This document shows positions 36,288 through 54,438 of a DNA stretch of 64,000 nt, one piece after another; positions within the stretch are counted from its first letter, which is position 1, and every line of letters begins with the position of its first letter. The translations under genes were made by a program, and so were the position numbers. A model generated the notes under the pieces. It was not told where the DNA came from, ran no database searches, and worked only from the letters and a program-made list of their open reading frames with translations. Source of the DNA: an uncultured Chloroflexia bacterium (GTDB taxonomy: Bacteria > Chloroflexota > Limnocylindria > Limnocylindrales > CSP1-4); the NCBI GenBank assembly GCA_963713795.1, contig CAVQNC010000009.1, forward strand, positions 13,978 through 77,977, given 5' to 3'.

Positions 36288-37016
36288 TCATTCGTCGAAG
36301 GTTTCGACTTCGTACGAGGAGAAGCCGTGGTCGACGTAGGTGTTCGCGCAGCCGAAGTTGAACCCGATACCCGGGTTGCCCGACTTGTAGACGTCGTCCG
36401 TCGCGGACAGCACCTCAACGCCGTTGACGTACGACCGGATGACGCTGCCGACGATCGTCGCCTCGACGACGTCTCCATTCTTGACGCCGAATTCCGGGCC
36501 CTGCCGCCTCGCCAGCGAAGTGAAGTCCCGGATCTTCTCGTTCCACCGGACGATTTCCGCATAGGCGCTCCCGGTCTTGAGGCATCTCCAGAACACCTCG
36601 TAACCGGTGCAGCTATGCGGGCCGAGTGAGCTGCGCAGGCGAAGCTCGACCTCCTGGAAGTACTCCTCCGTCTGATTCCGGCTGAAGACCGTGGCTCTGG
36701 CGTGCTGATCCTTTCCCCAGTCGCCGGACAGGAGCGCCGTCGGGTCGTCGTAGTCGCCTTCCGGCATCTCGCCGGCCGCGATCGTGGCCCCGCCGACTGC
36801 CTGTTCGGCCCGGCGTTCCGCGACCGCCATCCTGGTCTTCCCGCCGTGTGCGACGCCGCCTTCGGTGACGACGTCGGCCCAGTCGATGCCGTCCTTCTTC
36901 CCGTTGATCCAGAGCCCGCCTTCAGAGATCGGCTCTTCTTTCCGCTCGAAGTGCGTGCGATAAGACCGCACCGGTCTGCCCTTGAGTTCGGGTACGCCCT
37001 TTGCCTCGGCCGCCAT
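36288..37016 (-). CDS. Hypothetical protein (possible concanavalin/LamG-like jelly roll), no signal peptide
   Basis: ATG at 37016 preceded by AGGAGG. Coding-like composition. The beta-rich C-terminal half (YEVFWRC...EIVRWN...VKNGDVVEATIVG..IRSYVNG.EV..ATDD.Y..GNPGIGF) resembles lectin/glucanase-fold domains. No confident family. Confidence 0.5.
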   Translation of the reverse strand: MAAEAKGVPELKGRPVRSYRTHFERKEEPISEGGLWINGKKDGIDWADVVTEGGVAHGGKTRMAVAERRAEQAVGGATIAAGEMPEGDYDDPTALLSGDWGKDQHARATVFSRNQTEEYFQEVELRLRSSLGPHSCTGYEVFWRCLKTGSAYAEIVRWNEKIRDFTSLARRQGPEFGVKNGDVVEATIVGSVIRSYVNGVEVLSATDDVYKSGNPGIGFNFGCANTYVDHGFSSYEVETFDE

Positions 37017-37125
37017 GGTCTCCTCCTGTTGTGGCCTCCATCCGATCGTCTTGAGTTGCCGGTTCGGCCGTCCCTGCGACAGATGATCGCCGCGGCGGTA
37101 TCCCCGGCCACGGACCGCCCCAAAC

Positions 37126-37485
37126 TCATTCCGGTGTCGGCGGGTCCTCGTACGAGCGTACCGACACGAAAATCCCATCGTGAACGACGACCACGTTCAC
37201 GCCGACGACGTGAAACCGCGTCCCGTGATGATCGATGAGGACGGCGTCGTATTCGAGGGCGCAGCTGTCCGCTGTCCCGGCAAACTCGCGAAGGATCCTC
37301 ACTTCGAGCCCCGGATAGTCACGGGCCGAGTCTTCGTAAGCTCTCCGGATCTCGGCGTGGCCGCGCCGCAGGCCGCCGGCATCCTGGTACGTGCCATCGG
37401 GATGGTAATGGGCCATGACGCCGTCGACGTCCCGACGGCACTCGGCCGCCCAGTACGACTCCGAAACCTCACGTGGCGTGCGCAT
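37126..37485 (-). CDS. SnoaL-like / NTF2-fold protein
   Basis: 119 aa. The Y.AAE..RDVDGVMAHYHPDG.Y pattern is typical of SnoaL_2 domains. Confidence 0.65.
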   Translation of the reverse strand: MRTPREVSESYWAAECRRDVDGVMAHYHPDGTYQDAGGLRRGHAEIRRAYEDSARDYPGLEVRILREFAGTADSCALEYDAVLIDHHGTRFHVVGVNVVVVHDGIFVSVRSYEDPPTPE

Positions 37486-37599
37486 GTGCCTTTGCTCCCT
37501 CCAGCCTCAAACGCAGGCCGGACGCCAGTCGACGCCCGGCCTGGATCTGCTCCCCTTTCCAGTTCGTCCCCTGGGCCTGGGCCTTGAAGGCGGCGACTC

Positions 37600-39093
37600 C
37601 TAGGGCTCCTGGTTGAGTATCGCGAGTTCCTCGACGGTGGCTTCGTGCTCGTTCGCGTACTGGACCGACTTGAGGAGCCACTCCTCGCGGTTCGTCGATC
37701 TGAAGTACACGAGGATGCCGATGCCGGCGATGATCCAGACGATGTTGATCGGCAATGTCCAGAAGAAGATCCCGGTAAGGCTGGGAATGGCCAGCCAGAA
37801 GCTGAGTGCCAGGGCGCCGACGGCAAAGACCGGAATCACGAAGTGCAGGAACCAGTTGAACTCGGATCTCTTGACCCTGAACCAGTACCAGAAGACTCCG
37901 ACAGCGCCGGAACCGTAGATCACGATGACGGCCCATGTCAGGATAGTTGCCGTCCAGTAGTAGGCCTGATCGCCGCCGATCCAGAGACCCACCCCAAAGC
38001 CCCAGAAGATCGAGATGATCGTGGTCGCGATGATCGCGTTGCGGGGTACGTGGTTGTCGACCTTGGCCAGCCACTTCGGCAGGACGCCCGCTCGGGCGTA
38101 GCCGAACAGCAGCCGGTTGGTCACGATCGAGCAAGCCAGGACGCCGCCGAAGCAGCTGTTGCCGAGCACGATCAAGAGGATGATCCAGCCGGGGCCCCAG
38201 AGCCGCTGGGCCAGATCGAAGAACGCACCCACGGGCGCGCCGGCGAAGCCCTTGTCGAACTGCGCGATGCCGTAGCCGTTCACGATGCCGAACGAAGCCA
38301 CGACCATGAATAGCGAGGCGATCACGATCGAGCCTATCACCGCCCACGGAACGTACTTCCGCGGGTTGCGGCTCTCCTCGCCGACGGGCACAGCCGCCTC
38401 GAAGCCCGTGTAGGCCATGATGACCAGCGACACGCCGAAGGCGAGGCCGTTGAGCCCGTAGGCGGGATCGATCGAGGTGAAGGACTGCGTGGTGAAGCCG
38501 CCGGGGCCCGGGCTGAGCAGGCCGCTGATGCCGAAGGCCGTGAGGATGGCGATCTCGATCAGCGCCAGGGCGAGGACGAACCGGCCGGAGATCTTGATGC
38601 CGTTCCAGGTGATCCAGGTCGCGACCCCGAGCATGATCGCTGTCGTGGCCCACCACGGGAAGAAGATGTTCCAGCGGGTCTGCAGCTCGTTCTGGAGCAG
38701 GGTCCCGAAGATCGTGGCGCAGATGCTCGCCGTGATCGGGTCGTACAGCATGTACAGCCACCCGATCAGGAAACCGATGCGTGGGTGCAGCGTCTTGCTG
38801 ACGTAGGTGAAGTAGCTGGCCGCGGCCGGGAACTCACTCGCCAGCGTCGCCAGCGTAATGGCGATCGCGAGGCAGATGACGGCGCCGAAGAGATACGCGA
38901 GGGGCATGTTGTAGCCGACCTGCGCCGCGATGAAGGTTCCGGCGAGGAGCAGCGCGATGCCAGGAGCGATGTGCGTAAAGGACTGCGCGATCACTTGCGG
39001 GAACGAGAGGGCCCCTCCGTGGAGCTCCGTCTCGGCGACCATCACCCCCGTGCCACGTCCCCCAACGGGTGCCGCTTGTGTCTGGACGGCCAT
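37600..39093 (-). CDS. APC-superfamily amino acid permease (copy 1)
   Basis: 497 aa, about 12 TM. Clear paralog of the 44970-46439 gene, with shared blocks (SY(F/Y)TYVS, HPR.GF, GIK.S, GISG.LSPGPGG). Confidence 0.85.
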   Translation of the reverse strand: MAVQTQAAPVGGRGTGVMVAETELHGGALSFPQVIAQSFTHIAPGIALLLAGTFIAAQVGYNMPLAYLFGAVICLAIAITLATLASEFPAAASYFTYVSKTLHPRIGFLIGWLYMLYDPITASICATIFGTLLQNELQTRWNIFFPWWATTAIMLGVATWITWNGIKISGRFVLALALIEIAILTAFGISGLLSPGPGGFTTQSFTSIDPAYGLNGLAFGVSLVIMAYTGFEAAVPVGEESRNPRKYVPWAVIGSIVIASLFMVVASFGIVNGYGIAQFDKGFAGAPVGAFFDLAQRLWGPGWIILLIVLGNSCFGGVLACSIVTNRLLFGYARAGVLPKWLAKVDNHVPRNAIIATTIISIFWGFGVGLWIGGDQAYYWTATILTWAVIVIYGSGAVGVFWYWFRVKRSEFNWFLHFVIPVFAVGALALSFWLAIPSLTGIFFWTLPINIVWIIAGIGILVYFRSTNREEWLLKSVQYANEHEATVEELAILNQEP

Positions 39094-39413
39094 TCCGTAG
39101 AACCTCCTCCCGTCGTGCGCGACCAGGCGCGAATGGGATTCGTTCTTTGTTCGCGCACAGAGAACGAAAGAATTGTAAGTTTCCTACACACAGCGGGTCA
39201 AGGGAGGATTCGGCCCCGGACGGCAATCGAATCCGTCCCGCAACCTTTCCTCCGGGCATGAGTGGTGCGGTTACGGGTCCACGGAACCTGGACCGCACGG
39301 CCCCTCGAGCCGACGCCTCGCGAGCGGGGACAGCGGCTTCCACGACGCAATGGTTTAGTTCCGACTGGCCGAACGCTTGACCGATCCTCTCGGGCCGGTC
39401 GATCGCCGTTTCG

Positions 39414-40601
39414 TCAGCGGCCCTGCTCGAGCATGGTCAGCAGCCCGCCGTGGAGCGGGCCGCGCGGCATGATCGGCCAGATGTCCACTACGCGATCGTT
39501 CTCGACAACGTGGTAGGCGTCGAAGTAGTTGACGGCGAATGGCGTGTAGCCGAGATGGAAGTCGACCACGTCGCCCACCTTGAGCGGGCAGGCGGGGTCG
39601 GCGTCGTAGGTCGCGTGCTCCTCGTCGAACCGGTATGGCTTCAAGTCCTCGAATCCGAAGATACGAGGGTATGAAGGGATGTTGCCGACGTCGGCCGCCC
39701 CAAAGGTCTTCTTTCCCAGGTTGAGGACGACCCGATCCTTGCGCCGGCTGATGACCGTCACCACCGCCGAAGTCGCCTTCTTGAAACTCGGCTCCATCAG
39801 AAAGTGGAAGTCGTCCATGGCCGCGTAGGAGCCCAGCTGGAGCTCGGTTATGCGCGGGTCCGCCCCGGTCCAGAAGGCCGTGGCCGTCCCGGCCGCCGAT
39901 AGGATCGGGCAGGCCACGCCGTTGGCCTCGAGCAGGTCCGCGACCTCGACGAAGTACCGCATCGCCGCGGCCTGCTTCTGATGCCGTTTCTCGTTGTCCA
40001 TCTCCATCGAACAATGGCCCTCGTAGCCCGAGAGCCCTTCCATGATCAGGCCAGGCAGCTCCCGGACGCGCCTGGCGACTGCCAGGGCCTCCTCGGGAGA
40101 ATCGACGCCGGCCCGGTGCATGCCTGTATCGACCTCGACCAGGACCCCGATCGTGGTGCCGGCGTCGACTGCGGCCGCCGACAGCGCCTCGGCATCCCCT
40201 GGGTCATCGACGTTTACGATGACCCGCGCCTCGCGGGCCAGGAGGGCAGCGGCGCGACGCTTCTCCGGAGTGACGAGCTCGTTGGCGATGAGGACGTCGG
40301 CGGCGCCCGCGCGAACCATGACGATCGCCTCCCAGATCGTCGCCGCGCACAGGCCGAAGGCACCGTGCTCGAGCTGCATCCGGGCGATGTGCGGGCTCTT
40401 GTGGTTCTTGACGTGGCCCCTGAGACGGGCATGAAGACCGGGCAGCCGCGACTGCATGTACTCGAGATTAGTTCGCAGGATGTTCTTGTCGACCACCAGG
40501 GCCGGCGTCACCACGTCGTACTTGCTGCCGCCGATGGCGGACCCGTACATTTCGCGAACACGCTGGTGAGCGTCGACGATGAGCGGCGCCGGCTCTCGCA
40601 T
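39414..40601 (-). CDS. D-threonine aldolase / DSD1-like PLP enzyme (alanine-racemase N-terminal fold), paralog 1
   Basis: ATG at 40601 after GGAAGGAG. TPALVVD...LRGHVKNHKSPHIA (PLP-Lys context) plus a C-terminal D-serine-dehydratase-like beta domain. The track ORF extension to 41237 is an artefact. Confidence 0.85.
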   Translation of the reverse strand: MREPAPLIVDAHQRVREMYGSAIGGSKYDVVTPALVVDKNILRTNLEYMQSRLPGLHARLRGHVKNHKSPHIARMQLEHGAFGLCAATIWEAIVMVRAGAADVLIANELVTPEKRRAAALLAREARVIVNVDDPGDAEALSAAAVDAGTTIGVLVEVDTGMHRAGVDSPEEALAVARRVRELPGLIMEGLSGYEGHCSMEMDNEKRHQKQAAAMRYFVEVADLLEANGVACPILSAAGTATAFWTGADPRITELQLGSYAAMDDFHFLMEPSFKKATSAVVTVISRRKDRVVLNLGKKTFGAADVGNIPSYPRIFGFEDLKPYRFDEEHATYDADPACPLKVGDVVDFHLGYTPFAVNYFDAYHVVENDRVVDIWPIMPRGPLHGGLLTMLEQGR

Positions 40602-40660
40602 CCGATTCACTCCTTCCGGCCTCACGGCGGGGCATCTGACGGGACGCGGGTCGCTCGGCC

Positions 40661-41863
40661 CTATTCTCCGCGCTCGAGCATGTCGAGAAGCCAGCGCGAC
40701 TCCGGGCCCCGGGGCATGACCGGCCAGACGTCGGTCACGCGGCCGTTCTCCATCACGTGGTACGCCTCGAAGTACCCGATCGCGTTCGGCGTGTAGTTGC
40801 AGCGGATCTCGAACTTGTCGCCGACCTTGACCGGATCCGACGGATCCACGAGGAAGATCGAATGCTCCTCGTCGAAACGGAAAGGCTTGAGGCCGTCCGG
40901 GGCAAGGACGCCCTGAGACGCGCCGACGGTCTTGTTGCCGGCGTCGAGGACGATCCGGTCGGATCGGCGGCTGATCACCGTGGCGAGAACGGTCACCGCC
41001 CAGCCGAACCTGGGATCCAGGCCGCGGTGGTGTCCGTCCATGGTGGCGTATGACCCGGGCTGGATCTCCGTAATACCCGGGTAGCGCGACGTGATTTCCC
41101 ACGTCCCGGTGCCCGCGGCAGTCACGATCTCGCAAGGGAATCCGTTGGCTCCGAGATGGTCGGCGACGCCCGTCAGGAAGGCCATGGCCACCTTGGCCAT
41201 GGCGCGGCGCTTGGCCTCGTCGAACTCGAGCGAGCAATGGCCTTCATAGCCGGTCAGACCGACGAGCTTGAGCCCGGGCGAAGCCGCGATCTTGCGGGCC
41301 AGGACGAGCGCCTCCTCGGCCGAAGCCACGCCGCAACGATGCATGCCTTCGTCCACGTCGATGAAGACCCCGATCGTGCTTCCGGCGGCCGTCGCGGCCC
41401 TTGAGAGTTCCTCGATCTGGCCCGAGTCGTCGACCGCGACCTTGACGTCAGCCTCGCGGGCGAGCAGAGCCAGGGCGCGAGTCTTCTCCGGGCCCACGAC
41501 TTCGTTGATCACGAAGACGTCGTTGATGCCGGCTCGAGCCATGACGATGGCCTCCCAGACCGTCGCGCAGCCGACGCCGATGGCTCCGTACTCCACCTCC
41601 AGCCGGGCGATGTGGGGGCTCTTGTGAACCTTCACGTGGGCCCGCAACGTCGTCGGAACACCCTGCATGTGCTCGGCCATGAAGCCCAGGTTTGCCTTGA
41701 GGACGCCGAGATCGAGCAGGAGGGCGGGAGTAGTCAGATCGTCGCGGCCCCGGCCCATGGCCGGGGCGTACAGGTCGCGGACCTGCTGATGGCGCGACTT
41801 GATCAAGGACGCCGGCTCCGGCATTTGCTGGCTCTGCACGGTATTCACGTCTTCCTTTTCCAT
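40661..41863 (-). CDS. D-threonine aldolase / DSD1-like PLP enzyme, paralog 2
   Basis: TPALLLD...LRAHVKVHKSPHIA. Collinear with paralog 1 throughout. Start is ATG 41863, with a later Met possible. Confidence 0.85.
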   Translation of the reverse strand: MEKEDVNTVQSQQMPEPASLIKSRHQQVRDLYAPAMGRGRDDLTTPALLLDLGVLKANLGFMAEHMQGVPTTLRAHVKVHKSPHIARLEVEYGAIGVGCATVWEAIVMARAGINDVFVINEVVGPEKTRALALLAREADVKVAVDDSGQIEELSRAATAAGSTIGVFIDVDEGMHRCGVASAEEALVLARKIAASPGLKLVGLTGYEGHCSLEFDEAKRRAMAKVAMAFLTGVADHLGANGFPCEIVTAAGTGTWEITSRYPGITEIQPGSYATMDGHHRGLDPRFGWAVTVLATVISRRSDRIVLDAGNKTVGASQGVLAPDGLKPFRFDEEHSIFLVDPSDPVKVGDKFEIRCNYTPNAIGYFEAYHVMENGRVTDVWPVMPRGPESRWLLDMLERGE

Positions 41864-41895
41864 CGACGGTACTTGACGACAGCTATCTCGGGTAT

Positions 41896-42981
41896 TTACT
41901 GAGAGCTCCCCCGGGCCGTGATGGGCCACTGGTCGACTATCTCGCCGCCGCGAGTGACCCACACGTGGTCGTGGAGGTTGAACGTGGTCCTGATCTGGCC
42001 CGGAGTGAGATCAACCCCGCTGCCCAGTGCGGGCAGCGGATCGTCCATGATCAAGGTCGTGTGCTCGTCGCTGACCATGATTTCCTTCACGGCCAACCCG
42101 ACCGGGATTGGAGCTCCGTATTCCATCCCAACGACGCGTCTGCCGACGTCCGTGACGATTCGGCCGGGGTGGCGGCTGATGACGGTCCCCCTCAGCACCG
42201 CGGCGCATCGGAACGGCAGATCCATGATCAGCAGCTCCGGCTCCATCAGGGCGTATACGCCAGCCTGGATCTCGGTGATCGTCGGGTCGGCCAGCGCTTC
42301 TCTGAGTGTCGACGTGCCGGCAGCCGAAACGACTTCCGGCGGGAAGCCGGCTTCGCGCAACGCCGAGGCCGCTTCCGAAAGGGCTCCGTAGGCGCGCCGG
42401 ATCTTGCCGCTACGCTCCTTGTCGGTTATTCGGAGACGACCTTCATAGCCCATGACCCCGCGCAGGCGGAGACCCGGCAGGCGCTCGATCTTGTGGGCCA
42501 GGGCGATGGCGTCTCGAGGCGATGCCACGCCGCAGCGGTGCAGGAGGATATCCATGTCGATCAGGACCCCGACGGTCACGCCTGCCGCGTCGGCCTCGCG
42601 CGAGAGAACCTCGACGGGTGCGGCGTCGTCGACGGCAACCGAAACCAGGGCCCGGTGGGCCAGAGCGACCAGGCGGGCGATCTTGCGCGGATCCACGACC
42701 TCGTTGGCCACGAAGACGTCCTCGAGCCCTGCGTCGACCATGGCTTCGGCCTCGCCCACCGTGGCGCAGGTGAGACCCGACACGGAAGGGCCCAGCTGGC
42801 GCCTGGCCAGCTCGGGCGTCCGATGAGTCTTGACATGGGGCCGAAGCAGCTTGCCTGTGCCGCGCAGCAAGGTGGCCATTGCGGCGACGTTGGCCTCGAA
42901 GACGCCGAGATCGACGATGAGCGCGGGGGTTGACAGAGATGGTGGGGATTTGGGTTCTATCGGCGACGATGCGGGCGTCAT
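41896..42981 (-). CDS. D-threonine aldolase / DSD1-like PLP enzyme, paralog 3 (more divergent)
   Basis: TPALIVD...LRPHVKTHRTPELA. Same two-domain layout, 361 aa. Confidence 0.8.
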   Translation of the reverse strand: MTPASSPIEPKSPPSLSTPALIVDLGVFEANVAAMATLLRGTGKLLRPHVKTHRTPELARRQLGPSVSGLTCATVGEAEAMVDAGLEDVFVANEVVDPRKIARLVALAHRALVSVAVDDAAPVEVLSREADAAGVTVGVLIDMDILLHRCGVASPRDAIALAHKIERLPGLRLRGVMGYEGRLRITDKERSGKIRRAYGALSEAASALREAGFPPEVVSAAGTSTLREALADPTITEIQAGVYALMEPELLIMDLPFRCAAVLRGTVISRHPGRIVTDVGRRVVGMEYGAPIPVGLAVKEIMVSDEHTTLIMDDPLPALGSGVDLTPGQIRTTFNLHDHVWVTRGGEIVDQWPITARGSSQ

Positions 42982-42994
42982 GACCGTGCCTCTC

Positions 42995-44504: not shown

Positions 44505-44774
44505 TCACTCGAGACCGGAGATGTCCTCGCCGGGCTGGCCGATGATGCCGATCGTGGAGAAGATCGGCGTCTCGGTCTCGTTCCCCACCAGGATCTTCAG
44601 CAGGACCCCCGCGGCGGGCGCCTCGACGTCGAGCGAGATCTTCTCGGTCTCGATCTGGACGATCGATTCGCCCTTGTCGACCGTGTCACCGACGGCCTTG
44701 AGCCATTGCTTGACGGTACCTGTCTCAAGATCCTGGCCGGCCTGCGGCATGACCACCTTCACAGCCATGTTCAA
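44505..44774 (-). CDS. Free-standing lipoyl/biotinyl-attachment domain protein (89 aa)
   Basis: VVMPQAGQDLETGTVKQWLKAVGDTVDKGESIVQIETEKISLDVEAPAAGVL matches the E2 lipoyl-domain pattern, with the target Lys in ETEK. No catalytic or subunit-binding domain follows. Confidence 0.85.
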   Translation of the reverse strand: MNMAVKVVMPQAGQDLETGTVKQWLKAVGDTVDKGESIVQIETEKISLDVEAPAAGVLLKILVGNETETPIFSTIGIIGQPGEDISGLE

Positions 44775-46439: not shown

Positions 46440-46810
46440 GTCTCTGCTCCTTCACCAGTTGACCTTGAGATTCCGGTCACTCGCGACGGTAGACGCCTGC
46501 CTGGGTTCGCCGCGCTGCCGCGCGGCTGTCGGACCATTGCCCTGATGTTTCAGCGGACCGCGACCCCCCTCCTGACACGATTTGGACTGCGTCGGCCCGT
46601 AACAAACGATCACCCCGGGTCGATCCTGCTCCGCAGAGCCGGACCCTGCCCTCAGTTCCGCCGCCGTCTCGACGATCCTCCTTCCAGTCGGGGAAGTCGG
46701 CGGTTGGCCGTCGGCCGCTCCTTCCTCCGTTCCGAAACGCGGTCCTGCTTTCCGTTTCGAAACACAGAACAACAAGACTCTAGCGTGGCTAGTCAAGCCT
46801 CCGCAGCCCA

Positions 46811-47851: not shown

Positions 47852-48814
47852 ATGAGCCAGATGGGCGCGAACCTGCTCCTGTCGATGTACGAGACGGCGA
47901 CAACCATCCGCAAGTTCGAACAGAAGGCCATCGAGCAATACCGCGTGGGCAACATCCGTGGGTACTTTCATCCGTACCTGGGCGAGGAAGGGATAGCCGT
48001 CGGCGCGATCGCGGCCCTCGAGCCGGATGACTACATCGTCAGCACCCATCGCGGCCACGGACACGCGATTGCGAAGGGGCTCGAACCCAGGCAGATGATG
48101 GCCGAGCTGTTCGGCAAGGAGACCGGGTACTGCCGCGGACGGGGCGGATCGATGCACGTTGCGAGCCGATCGGTCCGAAGCCTTGGAGCGAACGGGATCG
48201 TCGGCGGCGGGCTGGCCATCGCCGACGGTGCCGCGATGGCGATCAAGCAGCGGGGCGAGTCGCAGGTCGTCGTAGCGTTCTGCAGCGACGGCTCATCGGC
48301 CAACGGCATCTGGCACGAATCGCTCAACCTGGCAGCCATCTGGGATCTGCCGGTCATCTTCGTCCTCGAGAACAACCAGTACGCCGTCTCGACCCCGATT
48401 CGGGACTCCGCTCGCGTAGACCATCTTTCCGAGCGGGCTGCCGGCTACGGTATGCCCGGCCTGACCGTGGACGGCAACGACGCCGCCATCGTCTACGGTG
48501 CGATGCAGGAACCCCTGCGCCGGGCACGGGCAGGCGAAGGTCCGACTCTGCTCGAGTGCATGACCTATCGCCACGGCGGCCACCATGTCAACGACCCGGG
48601 GCTCTACCTGCCCGCCGACGAACTGAAGCGCTGGAAGGAGCACGACCCCTTGATCGTCCTGCGCCAGCGCCTGGCTCTGGCCGGGGTCGAGGAAGCCTCC
48701 GTCACGGCCGTGGACGAGCGCGTCGAACGACTCATGGACGAGGCGGTCGCGTTTGCGGAGGCCAGCCCCAATCCGTCGCTCGACGAGTTCTGCGCCGAGG
48801 TCGCGATGCTGTAG
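47852..48814 (+). CDS. Thiamine-diphosphate-dependent dehydrogenase E1 component, alpha subunit (PdhA/AcoA-like)
   Basis: STHRGHGHAIAKG, GRGGSMH, GDGSSANG...NLAAIWDLPVIFVLENNQYAVST TPP motif. AAGGAGAA RBS. Confidence 0.9.
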   Translation: MSQMGANLLLSMYETATTIRKFEQKAIEQYRVGNIRGYFHPYLGEEGIAVGAIAALEPDDYIVSTHRGHGHAIAKGLEPRQMMAELFGKETGYCRGRGGSMHVASRSVRSLGANGIVGGGLAIADGAAMAIKQRGESQVVVAFCSDGSSANGIWHESLNLAAIWDLPVIFVLENNQYAVSTPIRDSARVDHLSERAAGYGMPGLTVDGNDAAIVYGAMQEPLRRARAGEGPTLLECMTYRHGGHHVNDPGLYLPADELKRWKEHDPLIVLRQRLALAGVEEASVTAVDERVERLMDEAVAFAEASPNPSLDEFCAEVAML

Positions 48815-48896
48815 CTCTGGACGAGCCCAAACAGCACAATTCGACGGACGACGAAACCCCAGCCGGCTCAGCCGAGCCGAGAAGGAAGTTGGGACG

Positions 48897-49883
48897 ATGA
48901 AGTACCGCGAGGCCCTCCGGGCCGCCCTCAACGAAGAGATGGAACGGGACGAGTCGGTGTTCTGCATCGGCGAGGGGATCGGCGAACGCGGGGGCTCGTA
49001 CAAGGTCACCGAGGGGCTCCTTGCTGAGTTCGGCCCCGGCCGAGTCATCGACACGCCCTTGAGCGAGGCTGGTTTCGTCGGCATTGGCGTCGGAGCGGCG
49101 ATCGCGGGCCGGCGCCCGGTCGTCGAGATCCTGTTCATCGACTTCCTGCTGCAGACGATGGACCAGGTGGTCAACCAGGCCGCGAAATACCGCTTCATGT
49201 CGGGCGGCGAGGGCCGAGTCCCCCTGGTGATCCGCACGCAGGGAGGGACCGGCAATTCGCTGGCCGGCCAGCATTCTCAGAGCCTGGAGGCCCTCTACTA
49301 TCACGTGCCCGGGCTGAAGGTCGTAATGCCGTCGACGCCCGCCGATGCCAAAGGGTTGCTGAAGTCGGCCATTCGCGACGATGACCCGGTCATATTCATC
49401 GAGCACAAGCTGCTCTACATGACCGACGGCGAAGTTCCCGAGGCGGATTACTCCATCCCGCTCGGCAAGGCCGACATCAAGCGTGCCGGCACCGACCTCA
49501 CCCTGGTGGCCTGGTCGCACATGGTCCTCAAGAGCCTGCAGGCGGCCGAGGAACTTGCCAAAGAGGGCATCTCCGTCGAGGTCGTCGACCTGCGGACGCT
49601 CGTGCCCATGGATGTCCCCTGCCTGCTCGACTCGGTGAGGCGGACGGGGCGGCTCGTCATCGCCCAGGAGGCCATCAAGCGCGGCGGCGTTGGCAGCGAT
49701 GTCGCCGCCATCGTCGCCGAGCAGGCGTTCGACGCGCTTCGCGCCCCGATCGTTCGGGTAGCGGGGATGAACACCACGATCCCATTCAACCTGGCCCTCG
49801 AAAAGGCTGCCGTCCCGCAGGTCGCCGACATCGTGGCCGGCGTCAGGTCGGTGGTCGGGGCAGGCACAGCGAGCCGCGCGTGA
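48897..49883 (+). CDS. E1 component, beta subunit (PdhB/AcoB-like)
   Basis: MKYREALRAALNEEMERDESVFCIGEGIG, DTPLSEAGFVG, and a transketolase C-terminal-like domain. Confidence 0.9.
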   Translation: MKYREALRAALNEEMERDESVFCIGEGIGERGGSYKVTEGLLAEFGPGRVIDTPLSEAGFVGIGVGAAIAGRRPVVEILFIDFLLQTMDQVVNQAAKYRFMSGGEGRVPLVIRTQGGTGNSLAGQHSQSLEALYYHVPGLKVVMPSTPADAKGLLKSAIRDDDPVIFIEHKLLYMTDGEVPEADYSIPLGKADIKRAGTDLTLVAWSHMVLKSLQAAEELAKEGISVEVVDLRTLVPMDVPCLLDSVRRTGRLVIAQEAIKRGGVGSDVAAIVAEQAFDALRAPIVRVAGMNTTIPFNLALEKAAVPQVADIVAGVRSVVGAGTASRA

Positions 49884-51064
49884 GCGGGTCGGAACTGGTC
49901 GCGACTTACCTGGCGGAGCTGCCGGCCGAAGGGACGGAGGCAGCCGCCGAGGCCTTCGCGACCGGGCAGAGCATCGGGACATGGGTGCCGGTCCCTGGCA
50001 TCAGCGAGGAAATGCGGCGCCTCCACGGGGCCAGGGTCGTCGAGGTGACCCGCGATCGTCCGGCCGAAGAACTCGGCGGCGAGGCGAACGGCGACCTCTG
50101 GGTACTGAGGGTGGCCTTCCCAACGCCCAACTTCGGGGCTCAGTTCCCGATGATGCTGACCACCCTCGTCGGCAACGACCCGTCGACGTCTTTGACCGTC
50201 CGGCTGGTCGACATAGACCTGCCCGAAGCGTTCCGGGCCGAATTCCCCGGTCCGCAGATGGGGGTGGACGGCTGGCGCAGCCTGACCGGCGTGTGGGACC
50301 GGCCCTTGCTCCTGAACATGATCAAACCGTGCACGGGGTATTCGCCGAGCGCAGGGGCGGACCTGCTCGAGCAGCCGGCGCGGGGCGGCGCGGACCTGAT
50401 AAAGGATGACGAGCTCCTGGGCGACGCCCCGTTCAACCGCGTCGCCGAGCGCTCTCGCATATACCGCGAGCGCCTGGAACGAGTCGCCGAAGAGACAGGT
50501 CACCGGGCCCGGTACATCTGCAACGTGACCGACCGAGCGAGCCGGCTCATCGACACCGCCCGGGCGGCGGTCGACGGCGGCGCGGACGCGCTGATGGTGA
50601 ATGCCCTTGCCGTCGGGTTGGACCCGTTTCAGGCGCTCGTGGAAAGCAAGCCTGGAGTGCCCATCCTGGTCCACACCGCCACATCCGACGTCATGACGGG
50701 CGCAACCAGCTCGGGAATCGGACAGGCGCTGATCTTCGGCAAGTTCCTGCGTCTTGCCGGAGCGGATGCCGTCTTCACCACGACGCCCTTCGCCCGCCGC
50801 CCGCCCTCCGGACTCGTATATGAGAAAACTCTTCAGTGGATGAGGGAGCCGAGCGGGACTCACAAACCGACCATGCCGATGCTCGCCGGAGGCGTGACCG
50901 GCTCGATGATCGGATCCCTGGTCCGGCAGTCCGGCGTCGACGTCATGCTGGGGATCGGCGGCGGGATCCAGGGCCATCCGCGGGGCGCCGAAGCAGGAGC
51001 TCGAGCTGTTCGGGCCGCGATCGACGAAGCGATGCTCTCGATGGAAGCCGGCGCGCATGGCTGA
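49880..51064 (+). CDS. RuBisCO large-subunit-like protein (form IV RLP, MtnW/YkrW-like architecture)
   Basis: ATGQSIGTW, FPMMLTTLVGN, RPLLLNMIKPCTG, GGADLIKDDE, PILVHTA, GKFLRLAGAD, GIGGGIQGHPRG are collinear with RuBisCO/RLP blocks. The GTG start overlaps the E1-beta stop (GTGA). The stop overlaps the E2 start (ATGGCTGA). Confidence 0.88.
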   Translation: MSGSELVATYLAELPAEGTEAAAEAFATGQSIGTWVPVPGISEEMRRLHGARVVEVTRDRPAEELGGEANGDLWVLRVAFPTPNFGAQFPMMLTTLVGNDPSTSLTVRLVDIDLPEAFRAEFPGPQMGVDGWRSLTGVWDRPLLLNMIKPCTGYSPSAGADLLEQPARGGADLIKDDELLGDAPFNRVAERSRIYRERLERVAEETGHRARYICNVTDRASRLIDTARAAVDGGADALMVNALAVGLDPFQALVESKPGVPILVHTATSDVMTGATSSGIGQALIFGKFLRLAGADAVFTTTPFARRPPSGLVYEKTLQWMREPSGTHKPTMPMLAGGVTGSMIGSLVRQSGVDVMLGIGGGIQGHPRGAEAGARAVRAAIDEAMLSMEAGAHG

Positions 51065-51788
51065 ACAGCGATCCGGCCCGCCCGGTGCCGCGGCTCCTCG
51101 CCGCCTCGAGCAATCGAAGATGCGGCTCGCCGTCGGGCGGCAGATGGCGACGAGCAAGCAGACGGTGCCCCATTTCTACGTCAGCACCGAGATCGTGATG
51201 GATTCCGTGCTGGATCTGGCGCGCCGCATGTCCGTCGCACCGGCCGCACCGCGTGTCTCGGTCACCGCCTGCCTGGTCAGGGCACTCACGCAAGCCCTTG
51301 TCGCGATGCCCGCCTTGAATGCGACCTTGACGCCGGACGGGTACGTTGCCGGGGAGAGCGTCAATGTCGGCATCGCGATCGCGCTGGAGGGCGGTCTCCT
51401 GGCGCCGGCGATGCTCGACTGTCAGGACATGGACTTGATCCAGACGGCGGCAGCGCTCGACGACCTCGTCGCTCGTGCGCGCAACGGCCGTCTCCGGGCT
51501 CCGGAGATGGGCTCCTCGACGTTCACGCTTTCGAACCTCGGCATGTTCGACGTCACCACCTTCTCGGCCATCGTGATTCCGCCGCAGGTGGCGATTCTCG
51601 CGGTCGGCCGAGCCGTTCCCCGCCCGATCGTGGTCGAAGGAGCAGTCGAGATCCGATCGGTCATGACGGCCACTCTGTCGGCCGACCACAGACTCATCGA
51701 CGGGGCCGACGCAGCTCGGTTCCTGGGGGAGTTCAAGTCTCGGCTGAACGATCTGGCGCGCTCGGAAGAGATGTTTCGGACGTCCTGA
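51057..51788 (+). CDS. 2-oxoacid dehydrogenase acyltransferase (E2), catalytic domain only
   Basis: 243 aa that begin directly at the catalytic-domain entry (KMRLAVGRQMATSKQTVPHFYVSTE). The DHRLIDG active-site motif is present. There is no lipoyl or peripheral-subunit-binding domain. Confidence 0.88.
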   Translation: MAEQRSGPPGAAAPRRLEQSKMRLAVGRQMATSKQTVPHFYVSTEIVMDSVLDLARRMSVAPAAPRVSVTACLVRALTQALVAMPALNATLTPDGYVAGESVNVGIAIALEGGLLAPAMLDCQDMDLIQTAAALDDLVARARNGRLRAPEMGSSTFTLSNLGMFDVTTFSAIVIPPQVAILAVGRAVPRPIVVEGAVEIRSVMTATLSADHRLIDGADAARFLGEFKSRLNDLARSEEMFRTS

Positions 51789-52105
51789 GAGGAGGTCGAG
51801 ACGGGCCCTTCGCATTGATCGCGATCCACCTGCGCAGATACGTGCAATGTCATGCAACATCTTGACGCGGCGGCGTACCGGTACCTATCCTCTGTTCTCG
51901 GACGCCGATAGACCGCTTCGCCGATCCGGTCGAGATGGCCGGGCCGATCCTCTACGTCTGCTTCGAAGACGCCACGTTCCAGACGGGCGGCCTCAAGGTC
52001 GATGACGGCGGTGATTCGGTCAGGCTGCCGGTACGCGGCGCGCTGGACGAGCCGTTGGTCCCGGGCAGAGTCCGCTGGTCCAGGCCAGCCCCAGGAGGCC
52101 AAGTC

Positions 52106-53062
52106 ATGGCAATCGCTCAAGGCCCGAAGGTCACTCTCGCCGAGTTCGACCGCATCTTCGAATCGGTCAAGAACTGGGGCAAGTGGGGTCCCGACGACCA
52201 GCTCGGAACGCTGAACTACATCACCCGCGACAAGGTCCGGCAGGCCGCCGGTCTGGTGAAGTCGGGTCGCCGGGTCTCGATGGAGATTCCCATCAACAAG
52301 GCGGCGGGACCGGACAACCCGAACCAGGCCTTCCACTACGTCACCCAGAGCCACGACATCGACATCGGATCCAGCGGCCTCACCTTCGCTCTCGACTTCC
52401 TGGGCATGGCCTGCCACGGCGACTGCCACACTCACATCGACGCGCTCTGCCACATCGCCTACAAGGGCCAGACGTACAACGGCAAACCCGCCCTCGAGGT
52501 GATGACCAGCAAGGGAGCCACGTCCCTCGACATAACCAGCTACGGCAACGGTCTGGTGGGCCGCGGCGTCCTCCTGGACATCCCGCGGCTGCGGGGCGTC
52601 AAATGGCTCGAGCCGGGAGAGGCGGTCCGCCGAGAGGAGCTGGAGGCGTGCGAGAAGAGCATCGGCCTCGAACTCGGCGAGGGCGACATCCTCGTCTACC
52701 GGACCGGCCACCACCGGCGCCGGCTCGAACTCGGAGCGTGGAGCAACGACCCGCCGCCGGCCGGTGAAGGCAAGGCCGGCCTGCACGTCGACACCATCCC
52801 CTGGATGCACGAACGCAGGATCGCCGCCTTCCTGCCGGACGGCGACGGCGAAGCTGTACCGAGCGTCGTCGAGGGTATGACCTATCCCATCCATCCGCTC
52901 CAGATCACGGCGATGGGCATGCTCGCCTCCGACAGCCTCCAGTTCGAGGACCTGGCTCGGGCCTGCGAGGAGGAGGGCCGCTGGGAGTTCATGGTCGTGG
53001 GCCTGCCCCTGCGCCTCCCGGGCGGCACAGGCTCGCCCTGGAACCCGATCGCCATCTTCTGA
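52106..53062 (+). CDS. Cyclase-family protein (kynurenine-formamidase-like fold)
   Basis: ATG at 52106 after AGGAGG. WG.DDQLGTLNYIT, CHGDCHTHIDALCH (His-rich metal motif), GVLLDIPR, GDILVYRTG. Confidence 0.75.
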   Translation: MAIAQGPKVTLAEFDRIFESVKNWGKWGPDDQLGTLNYITRDKVRQAAGLVKSGRRVSMEIPINKAAGPDNPNQAFHYVTQSHDIDIGSSGLTFALDFLGMACHGDCHTHIDALCHIAYKGQTYNGKPALEVMTSKGATSLDITSYGNGLVGRGVLLDIPRLRGVKWLEPGEAVRREELEACEKSIGLELGEGDILVYRTGHHRRRLELGAWSNDPPPAGEGKAGLHVDTIPWMHERRIAAFLPDGDGEAVPSVVEGMTYPIHPLQITAMGMLASDSLQFEDLARACEEEGRWEFMVVGLPLRLPGGTGSPWNPIAIF

Positions 53063-53319
53063 TGGAGGCAGCGCGGGAGTCCCGCCCGAAGCGACGGAGG
53101 AGGACGCCTGACACGAACACGGCTTGATTCCGGGTCTTGCCGAGAGCCGACTGGTACCGCGCCGGAGAGTCGGTCGAGGAGCGGCCCGCGACGGTCGATG
53201 AAATCGAAGCCCTGAAGGGCGAGTGTCTACCCGCCGCCGGGCGACGGGTAGACACAGAAAGTCCAACGCTCGAGCACGTTGCCAGCGACCCGCTCGAGCC
53301 CTTCCGCGGAGGTGTAACC

Positions 53320-54438
53320 ATGCCTGAGCTGTTCGGACGCTCCTACTCTCGGTCGGATCTCCTGCGTCACGTCGGCAGGCTCGAGCAGGTGGCCGGCGTC
53401 CGGCTGGTCACCCTGGACGACAGCCTCGGCCGTGGCGTGCGGGTGATCGAGTTCCGGACCGGCTCGGGCTTCTCCTTCGACGTCGTCGTCGATCGCTGCT
53501 TCGACATCGGCCGGTGCGAGATCGGAGGCCGCCCCCTCAACTGGCAGTCGAACGCGGGGATCGTGGGGCCGTGGTACTACGAAAACGACGAATGGGGCTG
53601 GTTCCGAGCCTGGGGCGGCGGCATGGTCGTGACCTGCGGCCTCGATCACACCCTCCTGTCGGGTGAGGACGACGCCAGCGACTTTCACCAGACTCATATC
53701 TTCAAGACGGTCTCGTACGGCCTCCACGGTCGCGTGGGCGGGCTGCCGGCCCGGCTCGTCGGCTACGGCGAGCGCTGGGACGGCGACGAGTGCGTCCTCT
53801 GGGCCGAGGGCGAAGTGCTCCAGTCGGCGATCTTCGGCGAGCATCTGCTGCTGCGCCGCCGGATCGAGGCACGCGTAGGAGAGTCGCACTTCACGATCCA
53901 CGACGAGGTCGAGAACGTCGGCCACAGCCGCGTCTCGCACATGCTGCTCTACCACTGCAACGCGGGATTCCCGGTGGTGGACGATGGGTCCAGGCTCCTC
54001 GTCCCCTCGCTCAAGACGACCACGGACTACGACGTGACGCCCGAGCTGATGGCCAGCTACCGGACGCTCACCGGACCGATCAAGGACTACAGCGAGAAGT
54101 GCTTCGAGCACGAACTGGTGGCCGAGAAGGACGGCAAGGTTCCGGTCGCGGTCGTGAACGAGAAGCTCGGATTGGGCGTCTACCAGGTCTTCCGGATCGG
54201 TCAGCTGCCTCACCACACGGTCTGGCGGATGATGGGCGAAGACACCTACGCCCTGGCCATGGAGCCGGGCACCAACCGCGACGCCGGCCGCTGGGACGCC
54301 AAGGAGCGCGGCGAGCTGCTCCACATGGAACCCGGCGAGATCCGCCCGTACGACCTGGAGATCGGCGCCCTGGTGGGCGACAAGGCGATAGCAGGATTCG
54401 AGAGCCGTGTAGAGCGGCTCGCACACGCACAGGGGTAG
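53320..54438 (+). CDS. Aldose-1-epimerase-fold protein (DUF4432-like)
   Basis: ATG at 53320 after GGAGGTG. GRGVRVIEFRTGSGF.F.V..DR..DI, GLHGR, LLYHCN.GFP blocks as in the DUF4432/mutarotase-like superfamily. Confidence 0.65.
   Translation: MPELFGRSYSRSDLLRHVGRLEQVAGVRLVTLDDSLGRGVRVIEFRTGSGFSFDVVVDRCFDIGRCEIGGRPLNWQSNAGIVGPWYYENDEWGWFRAWGGGMVVTCGLDHTLLSGEDDASDFHQTHIFKTVSYGLHGRVGGLPARLVGYGERWDGDECVLWAEGEVLQSAIFGEHLLLRRRIEARVGESHFTIHDEVENVGHSRVSHMLLYHCNAGFPVVDDGSRLLVPSLKTTTDYDVTPELMASYRTLTGPIKDYSEKCFEHELVAEKDGKVPVAVVNEKLGLGVYQVFRIGQLPHHTVWRMMGEDTYALAMEPGTNRDAGRWDAKERGELLHMEPGEIRPYDLEIGALVGDKAIAGFESRVERLAHAQG

Follow-up and report, generated by a model that had tools for sequence, protein, structure and literature searches.

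A modular catabolic island combining a RuBisCO-like protein and a split lipoyl-dependent dehydrogenase in Limnocylindria-type Chloroflexota

The gene system described here lies in a window of 64,000 nucleotides (64 kb, the whole stretch of DNA that was analysed, to which all position numbers refer) from an uncultured Chloroflexia bacterium, and its components resemble parts of several described systems. With acetoin dehydrogenase (AcoABCL) and pyruvate dehydrogenase (PDH), it shares a heterotetramer-type E1α/E1β with a thiamine pyrophosphate (TPP) motif, an E2 acyltransferase with a DHRxxDG motif, and an E2-type lipoyl domain; butanediol-dehydrogenase-like short-chain dehydrogenases/reductases (SDRs) sit near aco operons, as BudC-like SDRs do here. 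With form IV RuBisCO-like proteins (RLPs) such as the MtnW/YkrW enolase, the Rhodospirillum rubrum 5-methylthioribulose-1-phosphate isomerase, and OiaX/OiaT of the apionate pathway, it shares the large-subunit fold, the carbamyl-Lys/Asp/Glu site, and the expected enolization of a phosphorylated keto-sugar. The Lsr system of Enterobacteria (LsrK, LsrG, LsrF, LsrR, and LsrACDB) has its counterparts in equivalog-level LsrK and LsrF, in a SorC-type regulator, in Lsr-type ABC transporter genes of relatives, and in the expected products acetyl-CoA and triose phosphate, with a triose-phosphate isomerase (TIM) family gene next door in the island. In that system, the LsrK product, phosphorylated 4,5-dihydroxy-2,3-pentanedione (P-DPD), is a methyl α-diketone phosphate, and isomerization of the P-DPD type is performed by LsrG in E. 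coli. The D-threonine aldolase/DSD1 family shares its domain architecture and its lysine for pyridoxal 5'-phosphate (PLP) with three enzymes of the island (PLP1 to PLP3). Finally, in the E. coli yhfZYXW-php-yhfUTS cluster, a regulator of HTH_41 and YhfZ_C domains likewise adjoins genes that code for a PLP-fold enzyme and for enzymes of the sugar-phosphate type, and the frl fructoselysine operon next to it is similar in combining an APC permease with a kinase and a xylose-isomerase-like epimerase.

The region of the window that first drew attention is the right-hand two thirds of a modular catabolic island of ~30 kb (~24.4-54.4 kb), which is typical of Limnocylindria-type Chloroflexota and is shared by many uncultured Chloroflexota of soils and wetlands. 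The island is very probably one co-inherited catabolic system. The route proposed for it, to which a probability of about 0.4 is assigned, would lead from an amino-sugar-like compound to DPD-like keto-sugar phosphates, then through the RLP to E1α/E1β, a lipoyl carrier, and an E2 catalytic domain (E2cat), or to LsrF, and would yield acetyl-CoA and a triose or tetrose phosphate.

Co-inheritance and extent of the island

Based on tblastn searches with the window proteins, 165 related loci (designated by L numbers) were annotated, 80 of them anchored on the RLP, 80 on E1α, and several more reached via RLP homologues or the 'orphan' protein discussed below. Gene frequencies were counted in 18 loci, each at least 10 kb long and carrying an E1α at least 75% identical to that of the window. 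E1α is the best-conserved gene (77-87% identity across the related loci), E1β is present in all 18 long loci, and the lipoyl carrier is present in 17, the lone exception being cut at a contig edge. The window-type RLP occurs in 12 long loci, with one more locus holding an RLP of another lineage, followed by the YhfZ-family regulator (12), an APC permease (11), SDRa (10), SDRb and TIM (9 each), the FGGY kinase, PLP1, DUF4432, class II aldolase (FBAII), and HAD genes (8 each), the 'orphan' (7), the cyclase (6), and E2cat (4). At the invariant heart of the system stand E1α/E1β and the free lipoyl carrier, in most cases together with two SDRs and the RLP. The feeder modules upstream differ from locus to locus and include one made up of an APC permease, an FGGY kinase, and atypical PLP enzymes, one in which LsrK goes with an Lsr-type ABC transporter, and one of UPF0261 and PEP-hydrolase-like proteins. 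The recurrence of this gene set in dozens of independent contigs is far beyond chance.

A preliminary description of this DNA had proposed that two divergent arms form one system, and the carrier, encoded in the left arm, indeed accompanies the right-arm E1α/E1β in 17 of the 18 long loci. The comparison across genomes that it had called for has now been carried out: the gene set recurs as a shuffled block, and independent assortment of the arms was not seen in relatives. All 16 genes of that description, their strands, the gaps, and the kinase frameshift were recovered with Pfam, and the gap sizes agree (YhfZ and E1α are separated by 33 bp, 46440-46810 measures 371 bp, 39094-39413 measures 320 bp, and 317 bp separate E2cat from the cyclase start supported by a ribosome-binding site). 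The genes and intergenic regions of the two arms are as follows; calls combine a third-position G+C filter (window G+C ~68%) with Pfam, and starts were refined by ribosome-binding sites or orthologue lengths.

36288-37016, minus strand: ConA-like β-sandwich protein ('orphan'), 242 aa, no Pfam or NCBIfam match
37126-37485, minus strand: SnoaL/NTF2-like protein (Pfam SnoaL_2, 3e-12)
37600-39093, minus strand: APC-family amino-acid permease 1 (Pfam AA_permease_2, 3e-33)
39094-39413: internal intergenic region with a promoter-like site (39201-39172, minus strand) and an inverted repeat (39139-39168)
39414-40601, minus strand: PLP3, fold-type III enzyme of the DSD1/DTA family (Pfam Ala_racemase_N and D-ser_dehydrat)
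40661-41848, minus strand: PLP2, DSD1/DTA family (Pfam Ala_racemase_N and D-ser_dehydrat)
41896-42981, minus strand: PLP1, DSD1/DTA family (Pfam Ala_racemase_N and D-ser_dehydrat)
42995-44444, minus strand: FGGY sugar kinase, frameshifted (Pfam FGGY_N/C)
44505-44768, minus strand: free-standing E2-type lipoyl carrier, 87 aa (Pfam Biotin_lipoyl, 2e-15)
44970-46439, minus strand: APC-family amino-acid permease 2 (Pfam AA_permease, 1e-37)
46440-46810: divergent control region with two near-palindromes
46811-47818, plus strand: YhfZ-family regulator, HTH_41 and YhfZ_C (Pfam, 1e-40), alternative start at 46880
47852-48814, plus strand: TPP-dependent dehydrogenase E1α (Pfam E1_dh, 5e-82)
48897-49883, plus strand: E1β (Pfam Transket_pyr/Transketolase_C)
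49880-51064, plus strand: RLP, form IV (Pfam RuBisCO_large, 6e-35)
51057-51788, plus strand: E2cat, acyltransferase domain alone (Pfam 2-oxoacid_dh, 2.5e-67)
52106-53062, plus strand: cyclase-family (PF04199) metal hydrolase-like protein (Pfam, 1e-15)
53320-54438, plus strand: DUF4432 protein (Pfam, 6e-92)

At least four gene orders are found among the related loci, in which the kinase-PLP pair, the permease, the SnoaL-orphan pair, DUF4432, and the cyclase recur shuffled. In the Type I order, a permease adjoins YhfZ-E1α-E1β-(SDRb)-RLP-(E2cat or TIM), as in the window, L001, L002, L004-L006, L084, L087, L088, L110, and L115. In the Type II order (L093, L100, L113, L114, L165, L167, and many short contigs), one strand carries PLP1-FGGY-lipoyl-SDRa-DUF4432-permease-YhfZ-HAD-FBAII-DeoR, followed by E1α-E1β, SDRb-(RpiB-TIM), and SnoaL-orphan-(AKR), AKR denoting an aldo-keto reductase; the short contigs of this type stop inside the PLP genes, and the complete L167 has an RLP of another lineage just beyond. 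Every component of the cluster first noted is present in L167, rearranged once more, and there cyclase-RLP-PLP3-PLP2-PLP1-FGGY form a single operon. The Type III order is lipoyl-E1α-E1β-RLP-TIM behind a different upstream module (L096, L097, L104, L108, and L111), which encodes UPF0261 (Tm-1-like), three PEP-hydrolase-like proteins, a Zn-dependent alcohol dehydrogenase (Zn-ADH), and a ComB-like (2-phosphosulfolactate-phosphatase-like) phosphatase; in L096 (2182-8977), DUF1097 is also part of it. In Type IV loci, where E1α is 60-65% identical, E1α-E1β is followed by an ordinary fused E2.

The ~18-kb boundaries drawn in the preliminary description (36288-54438) are too narrow, as the system reaches left to ~24.4 kb. 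SDRa of the upstream block is 72-84% identical to the SDR adjoining the lipoyl carrier in L002 and L004-L007, and in L002 the SDR located between E1β and the RLP (9231-9989) shares 79% identity with SDRb; since these orthologues lie inside the core in relatives, 24.4-36.3 kb belongs to the system. That two or three operons without relation to one another (for amino-acid catabolism, for an acetoin-/PDH-like complex with an RLP, and an Lsr remnant) became neighbours by chance is highly improbable. Promoter-like sites in the two ~320-bp gaps do suggest several transcription units, and module content varies between loci; however, the same families recur together, in shuffled order, across many contigs, SDR orthologues have moved between the supposedly separate parts, and carrier and E2cat are halves of one ancestral gene.

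The probable left border of the island at ~24.3 kb is marked by flanking genes that are apparently unrelated to it, namely those at 16209-24227 for a Rieske protein, SufB/D, a CBM48/α-amylase-family (glycogen-debranching-like) protein, and an AlkZ-like DNA glycosylase. In the window, the cluster is followed by DUF2171, OsmC, two-component system, and MMPL genes, and directly downstream of the island, on the opposite strand at 56101-59057, a gene for an HD-GYP-type response regulator overlaps a histidine kinase gene. In L001, gcvT, gcvH, and gcvP are located at 18383-21182, ~4 kb past the orthologous cluster; in the window, the region downstream showed no counterpart. An Rfam scan of the whole window found no riboswitch or other RNA family.

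The split dehydrogenase and the RuBisCO-like protein

E1α and E1β are of the heterodimer type and possess the TPP-binding folds (PF00676, PF02779, and PF02780). The closest PDB match of E1α is human PDH E1α, and its score with the PDH equivalog model does not reach the cutoff (337 vs 394); E1β, at 416 bits, exceeds the cutoff of 321 set for the PDH E1β subfamily in NCBIfam. AcoAB-type and PdhAB-type E1 cannot be told apart by sequence similarity. The stop codon of E1β overlaps the start of the RLP gene, and the stop codon of the latter overlaps the start of E2cat, an arrangement of translational coupling. In E2cat (243 aa, DHRLIDG motif), 2-oxoacid_dh is the sole domain found by Pfam, with neither a lipoyl domain nor an E3-binding domain detected, and the left-arm carrier possesses the lipoyl-lysine motif ETEK. 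A single 409-aa open reading frame (ORF) right after E1β holds lipoyl and catalytic domains in L137, and an E3-binding motif lies between the two in L138 (a fused lipoyl-PSBD-catalytic E2). Because they are fused in these relatives, carrier and E2cat, encoded in opposite arms of the window cluster, are two pieces of one ancestral E2, and this split is the strongest support for the functional complementarity across the arms that had been pointed out earlier.

In contrast to AcoABCL and PDH, the E2 of the island is thus divided into an 87-aa carrier in the opposite arm and a bare catalytic domain, E3 is missing from the island, the RLP is coupled between E1β and E2cat, and most relatives have no E2cat in the cluster. 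The more distant relatives with a fused E2 have other neighbours; in L150, an E3 gene comes after the fused E2, and L138, L142, and L149 have neighbours including GFO/IDH/MocA, PfkB, and Fe-ADH proteins. In L149 (2843-5278) and L142 (1829-6063), the fused-E2 loci lie beside a DAO-FAO_M-GCV_T protein of the dimethylglycine/sarcosine-dehydrogenase type, a pair of corrinoid-protein/URO-D-like methyltransferase genes, and a GFO/IDH/MocA oxidoreductase. These neighbours of L138, L142, and L149 hint at N- or O-methylated/N-alkylated amines or cyclitol-type compounds as substrates.

In the main rival of the proposed route, which is unlikely, E1α/E1β, carrier, and E2cat form an ordinary 2-oxo-acid dehydrogenase. 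PLP ammonia-lyases of the D-serine-dehydratase type would act on a β-hydroxy amino acid or a 2-amino-2-deoxy-aldonate that has been imported and possibly phosphorylated, the resulting 2-oxo or 2-keto-3-deoxy acid would be converted to acyl-CoA and CO2, and the RLP, the kinases, TIM, and the aldolase would process the sugar tail. The E1α and E1β matches are consistent with this route, as are the amino-acid permeases, the three DSD1-family enzymes beside the carrier, the additional match of the FGGY kinase to FGGY-type gluconate kinase, and the glycine-cleavage genes downstream in L001, which fit amino-acid catabolism. However, PLP1-PLP3 are devoid of the His-x-Cys/His-x-Asp metal site of known dehydratases and aldolases, and no role is left for LsrK, LsrF, and the BudC-like SDRs. 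Furthermore, L004 and the Type III loci L096, L097, and L108 keep E1α/E1β, the carrier, and the RLP without the window-type PLP1-kinase pair or an APC permease, and have Lsr-type or other feeders instead.

The RLP belongs to the RuBisCO superfamily (PF00016 and PF02788). The residues K175, D177, and E178 (carbamyl-Lys/Mg ligands) are invariant, and K149, H265, the T34-W35 pair, and a GGxxGH motif are kept. The T34-W35 pair and the GGxxGH motif are taken to be the C1-phosphate site, and the residues of the C5-phosphate site, R295 and H327 in RuBisCO numbering, are replaced, with H265-T266 in place of H294-R295 and AGADA in place of the GGDH motif. This residue pattern suggests as substrate a mono-phosphorylated keto-sugar that is enolized next to the phosphate. 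A bona fide RuBisCO was rejected on the score of the form III model (199 bits vs 497) and on the replacement of the C5-phosphate and catalytic residues. The clade of this RLP is marked by the invariant motifs NMIKPCTG (with Cys151) and DLIKDDEL, and at least 528 of its relatives are found in GTDB species genomes, which belong to Chloroflexota, Bacillota (gut Clostridia), and Actinomycetota; the named ones among the relatives are metagenome-assembled genomes of Chloroflexota, "Ca. Limnocylindrales/Limnocylindria".

By automatic annotation, the RLP would be the 2,3-diketo-5-methylthiopentyl-1-phosphate enolase (MtnW) of methionine salvage; MtnW models and structures are its best named matches (270 bits; PDB 2zvi and 2oek), and its homologues are named MtnW by JGI. 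However, the RLP scores below all NCBIfam cutoffs, including those of both MtnW models (NF007095, 270.3 bits vs 409; TIGR03332, 248.3 vs 513.6). In the alignment with 2oek ('TFGK' vs 'LVGN'), the position of the catalytic Lys98, the general base of Geobacillus MtnW, is occupied by Asn99, which is invariant in 15 clade members, and an 'MtnW-like' reading fails at this defining residue. None of mtnK, mtnA, mtnB, mtnX, and mtnD is among the Pfam and NCBIfam matches at ~11-63 kb, several genes below 11 kb and a few others having been left out of the scan; the neighbours are E1/E2, TIM, RpiB, and kinase genes instead. A role in methionine salvage is scarcely credible on these grounds. From the known form IV RLPs as a group, the protein differs in its low scores (270 vs 409 for MtnW and 155 vs 700 for OiaX), in the Asn replacing Lys98, in the NMIKPCTG motif, and in its context of E1/E2-lipoyl and LsrK/LsrF genes.

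TIM-like and RpiB-like isomerases serve tetrulose-phosphate steps in the erythritol and apiose pathways. Among the loci of distant members of the RLP clade, TIM-like and RpiB-like genes flank the RLP in 45 of 76, an FGGY kinase in 35 of 76, and E1α is nearby in only 3 of 76; the adjoining TIM and RpiB genes point to keto-sugar-phosphate isomerization. These wider-clade RLPs (L008-L083, e.g., L021 8335-11221; 40-58% identity), which are commonly misnamed 'MtnW', also often have phosphotransferase system (PTS) or FGGY kinase and DeoR genes near the TIM-like and RpiB-like ones, and their neighbourhoods look like an uncharacterized tetrulose- or ketose-phosphate pathway. PTS EI, PTS EIIC, RpiB, and TIM are the neighbours of an Enterocloster RLP. 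A second RLP lineage (36-39% identity) occurs in the same type of cluster in L167 (3190-4446) and L124, co-operonic with three PLP enzymes and a kinase.

The Lsr-type block and the feeder modules

The upstream part of the island contains the following genes.

24428-24901, plus strand: RpiB/LacAB-type sugar-phosphate isomerase (Pfam LacAB_rpiB, 1.5e-55), stop overlapping the TIM start
24898-25647, plus strand: divergent TIM-family isomerase (Pfam TIM, 1.3e-59)
25895-27070, plus strand: D-2-hydroxyacid dehydrogenase, PGDH/PdxB-like (Pfam 2-Hacid_dh_C, 1.5e-43)
27045-28625, plus strand: LsrK orthologue, autoinducer-2/DPD kinase family (NCBIfam NF008187)
28704-29600, plus strand: LsrF orthologue, 3-hydroxy-2,4-pentanedione-5-phosphate (P-HPD) thiolase family (NCBIfam NF006081)
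29610-30338, plus strand: ribulose-phosphate 3-epimerase-like (RPE-like) protein (Pfam Ribul_P_3_epim, 2e-48)
30444-31214, minus strand: SDRa (Pfam adh_short)
31285-32064, minus strand: SDRb (best NCBIfam match glucose-1-dehydrogenase subfamily, BudC-like)
32220-32729, minus strand: VOC/glyoxalase-fold protein (Pfam Glyoxalase_4, 1.3e-11)
33003-33971, plus strand: SorC/LsrR-type sugar-binding regulator (Pfam Sugar-bind, 1e-59)
33972-34847, minus strand: xylose-isomerase-like TIM-barrel protein, ketose 3-epimerase-like (Pfam AP_endonuc_2, 3e-44)
35132-36242, plus strand: AKR in two frames, break at ~35940-36000

LsrK scores 624 bits against NF008187 (cutoff 528) and, over 518 aa, shares 45% identity with E. 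coli LsrK, and LsrF scores 498 bits against NF006081 (cutoff 297) and is 64% identical to its E. coli counterpart. The SorC regulator is 29% identical to E. coli LsrR (LsrR model, 115 bits vs 486). With E. coli LsrG as tblastn query (E ≤ 1e-3), no match was obtained in the window or in the 165 loci, and no LsrB-like protein was matched in the window. The RpiB-like protein passes the NCBIfam rpiB cutoff (156.8 bits, cutoff 138.65) and reaches 151 bits, below the cutoff of 240, with DerI (D-erythrulose-4-phosphate isomerase), and the TIM-like protein, 48% identical to the TIM after the RLP in L002, falls short of all TpiA equivalog cutoffs in NCBIfam (189 vs 293). The RPE-like protein passes a subfamily model and is below the rpe equivalog cutoff (183 vs 212.6), and the xylose-isomerase-like protein, which has an orthologue in the L007 cluster, has D-psicose 3-epimerase as its best NCBIfam match (178 bits, cutoff 300).

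The RPE-like gene comes after LsrF in all five loci with LsrK and LsrF, the 2-hydroxyacid dehydrogenase gene precedes LsrK-LsrF-RPE in L002, L004, and L114 (in L166 it lies within the same block, on the opposite strand), and VOC orthologues adjoin the dehydrogenase-LsrK pair in L002, L004, and L166. The whole VOC-dehydrogenase-LsrK-LsrF-RPE block with the SorC regulator directly follows RLP-TIM in L002 and L004; in L114 it follows E1α/E1β-SDRb. In L166, a GntR-LsrK-LsrF-RPE-PLP-'orphan' operon lies beside APC permease, epimerase, SorC, VOC, and 2-hydroxyacid dehydrogenase genes. In L002, L004, and L113, LsrB/C/A-type ABC transporter genes (Peripla_BP_4/BPD_transp_2/ABC) adjoin lipoyl-SDRa. As both the sole transporter and the kinase of L004 are of the Lsr type, the intermediate that enters the lower pathway there should, by orthology, be P-DPD or a close analogue.

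A genuine system for uptake and degradation of autoinducer-2 (AI-2, DPD), serving signal interference or scavenging with extra enzymes, could account for the equivalog-level LsrK and LsrF, the SorC/LsrR-type regulator, and the Lsr-type transporter genes of L002, L004, and L113. This explanation is improbable, however, as neither an LsrB-like match nor LsrG is found in the window, where the transporters are APC permeases, and some 20 further conserved enzymes would be superfluous for the two-step E. coli route. In addition, the LsrK-LsrF genes of L166 are co-operonic with a PLP enzyme and have an amino-acid permease beside them, which points to a different, amino-bearing precursor. Compared with the Lsr system, the LsrK and LsrF genes of the island are embedded among those for the RLP, E1α/E1β, carrier, SDRs, RPE-like protein, and 2-hydroxyacid dehydrogenase and are linked to amino-acid permeases and PLP enzymes. 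For the part played by LsrG in E. coli, no candidate among the RLP, VOC, SnoaL-like, and RPE-like proteins co-occurs with LsrK and LsrF in every locus.

In the feeder module of the window, PLP1-PLP3 have the PF01168 and PF14031 architecture, and the PLP-binding Lys in an H(V/I)K motif is conserved. PLP2 is 52% identical to PLP3, and PLP1 is closest to D-threonine aldolase (Alcaligenes, PDB 4v15, 206 bits). At the position of the metal dyad, PLP1 has GQIRTT, PLP2 NYTPNA, and PLP3 GYTPFA instead of SHVDPT, in the window and in close orthologues. Relative to 4v15, H347 is replaced by Q and D349 by R in PLP1, and GQ[IV]RTT with its invariant Arg is conserved in L001, L005-L007, and L114; a distant PLP copy in L137 (SSNRTT) is also without the dyad. 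A canonical D-threonine aldolase or dehydratase was rejected for PLP1-PLP3 because the His-x-Asp/His-x-Cys metal dyad is absent, and a 'D-threonine-aldolase-like' reading fails at these defining residues. A further difference from the D-threonine aldolase/DSD1 family is that PLP1 adjoins or is fused with a sugar kinase: the two genes are adjacent in every locus with PLP1, and in L001 they were called as one 850-aa protein, a fusion that is possibly an assembly artefact.

The closest PDB match of the FGGY kinase is LsrK (5ya0, 101 bits), and it is only 29% identical to the LsrK of the window. Its ORF at 42995-44266 is without the first ~65 residues, which are encoded in a different frame from 44444 onwards (MSLIGIDLGTSAIK...); compared with the orthologues of L001, L005, L006, and L007, the frameshift is one extra base at ~44298-44303. 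In the AKR gene, the second broken gene of the island, positions 1-219 are encoded in the ORF starting at 35132 and positions 239-290 in the ORF at 36000-36242; its orthologues come after SnoaL-orphan in L094, L116, and L165. Since sister contigs of the same assembly kind have many broken genes, these frameshifts are as likely to be assembly (long-read) indels as real decay. Permease 1 has an orthologue of 83-84% identity beside YhfZ in L005 and L110.

The 'orphan' ORF spans 36288-37178, with a real start probably at 37016, which gives 242 aa. The preliminary description had called it an orphan jelly-roll-like gene, and the jelly-roll part of this name is supported by an AlphaFold (AF2) model (pLDDT 72.8, pTM 0.77), for which the best PDB matches in Foldseek are ConA-like β-sandwiches (CBM66, GH16 glucanases, and galectins; TM 0.4-0.57). 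The word orphan does not hold, as at least 1751 homologues are found at E ≤ 1e-5, all named 'hypothetical', with invariant residues including QEVE (121-124). Its gene almost always has a SnoaL-like partner, a pairing seen in at least 10 related loci, and a carbohydrate-binding or -processing role is plausible from the modelled fold. Orthologues of the cyclase are present in L001, L002, L004, L006, L007, and L167, and those of DUF4432 are located within the lipoyl-SDRa-permease operon in L093, L100, and L167.

Regulation, candidate route, and meaning

The YhfZ-family regulator matches PF14503 at 139.7 bits (cutoff 35) and PF14502 at 27.6 bits (cutoff 25), is below the cutoff of NF041241 (YhfZ_full, 186.6 vs 260 bits), and is 29% identical to E. 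coli YhfZ. As the preliminary description had stated, E. coli yhfZ heads an uncharacterized cluster that includes the PLP-binding yhfX. The analogy drawn from this holds for the regulator and not for the content of the cluster, as no other yhf protein, YhfX included, matches the window. No counterpart of YhfX, YhfW, Php, YhfS, YhfT, YhfU, FrlA, FrlB, or FrlD was found in the window, and the E. coli yhf and frl clusters were rejected as homologous systems, YhfZ and a weak FrlC match (19%, E 1e-6) being the only links. With YhfZ in 12 of the 18 long loci and DeoR or SorC regulators central in others, the view of the system as organized around YhfZ is overstated.

In the control region, two near-palindromes, CGTTCCGAAACG (46728-46739) and CGTTTCGAAACA (46753-46764), lie 25 bp apart. 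The yhfZ-proximal motif is also found upstream of yhfZ in L001 (two copies), L002, L084, L087, and L088, and was not found in the island outside 46728-46764. Roughly one match per 31 kb occurs over 1.94 Mb of loci, compared with about ten in ~3.5 kb of orthologous intergenic DNA, a clear enrichment upstream of yhfZ in a comparison that is weakened by the kinship of the loci. YhfZ probably controls the divergent promoter via the conserved CGTTTCGAAAC palindromes, which are the best candidate operator. Promoter and terminator scans gave nothing above shuffled expectation, with promoter-like hexamers in both ~320-bp internal gaps. An inverted repeat of 15+15 nt at 39139-39168 (TTCGTTCTTTGTTCG/CGCACAGAGAACGAA), unlike the yhfZ-proximal palindrome, lies between a promoter-like site and the start of permease 1, and may be a second operator; it is among consensus matches that do not exceed chance.

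In the keto-sugar-phosphate route proposed here, an amino-bearing sugar- or polyol-like compound would enter via the APC permeases, the FGGY kinase would phosphorylate the import, and PLP1-PLP3, devoid of a metal site, would deaminate or cleave it. The carbon skeleton could thus become keto-sugar phosphates of the 1-deoxy-2,3-diulose/methyl-ketol type, with P-DPD as the prototype. The RLP may then perform an enediol-type keto-isomerization next to the phosphate (P-DPD to P-HPD, or the tetrulose-phosphate equivalent), the SDRs and the 2-hydroxyacid dehydrogenase may interconvert diketone and ketol forms, and the RPE-like enzyme may epimerize C3. E1α/E1β could cleave a C2 (acetyl) unit beside the keto group, in the manner of acetoin dehydrogenase, with reductive loading onto the lipoyl carrier, and E2cat would hand the acyl group to CoA; LsrF would provide a thiolytic alternative on the 2,4-diketone. 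The remainder could leave as dihydroxyacetone phosphate/glyceraldehyde 3-phosphate (TIM), as tetrose phosphate (RpiB), or via the class II aldolase, and the DUF4432, cyclase-family, SnoaL-like, and ConA-like proteins may act on the sugar or conjugate part. A constant lower pathway (E1α/E1β, carrier, SDRs, RLP, and TIM/RpiB/FBAII) would in this way be fed by interchangeable upstream modules.

In a further version, the route would be an undescribed one in which 1-deoxy-2,3-diulose phosphates arise from imported amino-sugar conjugates, e.g., of the Amadori type, the RLP replaces LsrG, and a split, E3-less TPP enzyme acts on a keto-sugar phosphate instead of a 2-oxo acid, with acetyl-CoA and triose or erythrose phosphate as the products. 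N-linked sugar-amino compounds, such as those of the Amadori type, are abundant in decaying organic matter. This version is doubtful, and with only the regulator and the weak FrlC match in common with the E. coli clusters, an Amadori-compound substrate stays speculation.

Several observations weigh against the keto-sugar-phosphate route, all steps of which are drawn from family membership and gene context. With E. coli Lpd as tblastn query, no E3 was matched in the 64-kb window or in the Type I-III loci, the only matches being in L026, L052, and L150, and the confinement of E2cat to 4 of the 18 long loci leaves the fate of the acyl-lipoyl carrier in doubt. The greatest similarity of E1α and E1β being to PDH E1, a 2-oxo-acid substrate appears equally compatible, and with the metal dyad missing, neither aldolase nor dehydratase chemistry can be assumed for the PLP enzymes. 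The kinase and AKR genes are broken in the window. Moreover, the core is joined by LsrK and LsrF in no more than about five loci, of which L114 and L166 have no window-type RLP within reach, so that the RLP is not a universal substitute for LsrG.

The combination of families was described earlier as matching no nameable catabolic pathway, and literature searches accordingly turned up no description of it. In the full-text literature, no paper was found that links an RLP with lipoyl proteins or FGGY kinases, or LsrK with RuBisCO, and nothing was found on the function of YhfZ or DUF4432; searches on RLPs and erythrulose likewise found no such system described. The component families are all known, and the combination and the split-E2 architecture are, to our knowledge, undescribed.

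Most form IV RLPs have no assigned function, and the clade of at least 528 relatives considered here is routinely misannotated as a methionine-salvage enolase; there is a realistic chance that the island hides a new RLP reaction. The coupling of an RLP inside a lipoyl-dependent TPP dehydrogenase, near LsrK and LsrF, gives a short and concrete list of candidate substrates. If the proposed route is true, a new reaction would be added to the RLPs, and chemistry of the 2-oxo-acid-dehydrogenase type would be extended to keto-sugar phosphates, a new class of substrates, with a free-standing carrier. Roles would also emerge for DUF4432, for the ConA-like family of more than 1700 members, and for the metal-less DSD1-type PLP enzymes, and LsrK and LsrF would belong to a general carbon pathway of bacteria in soils and wetlands, beyond the removal of a quorum signal.

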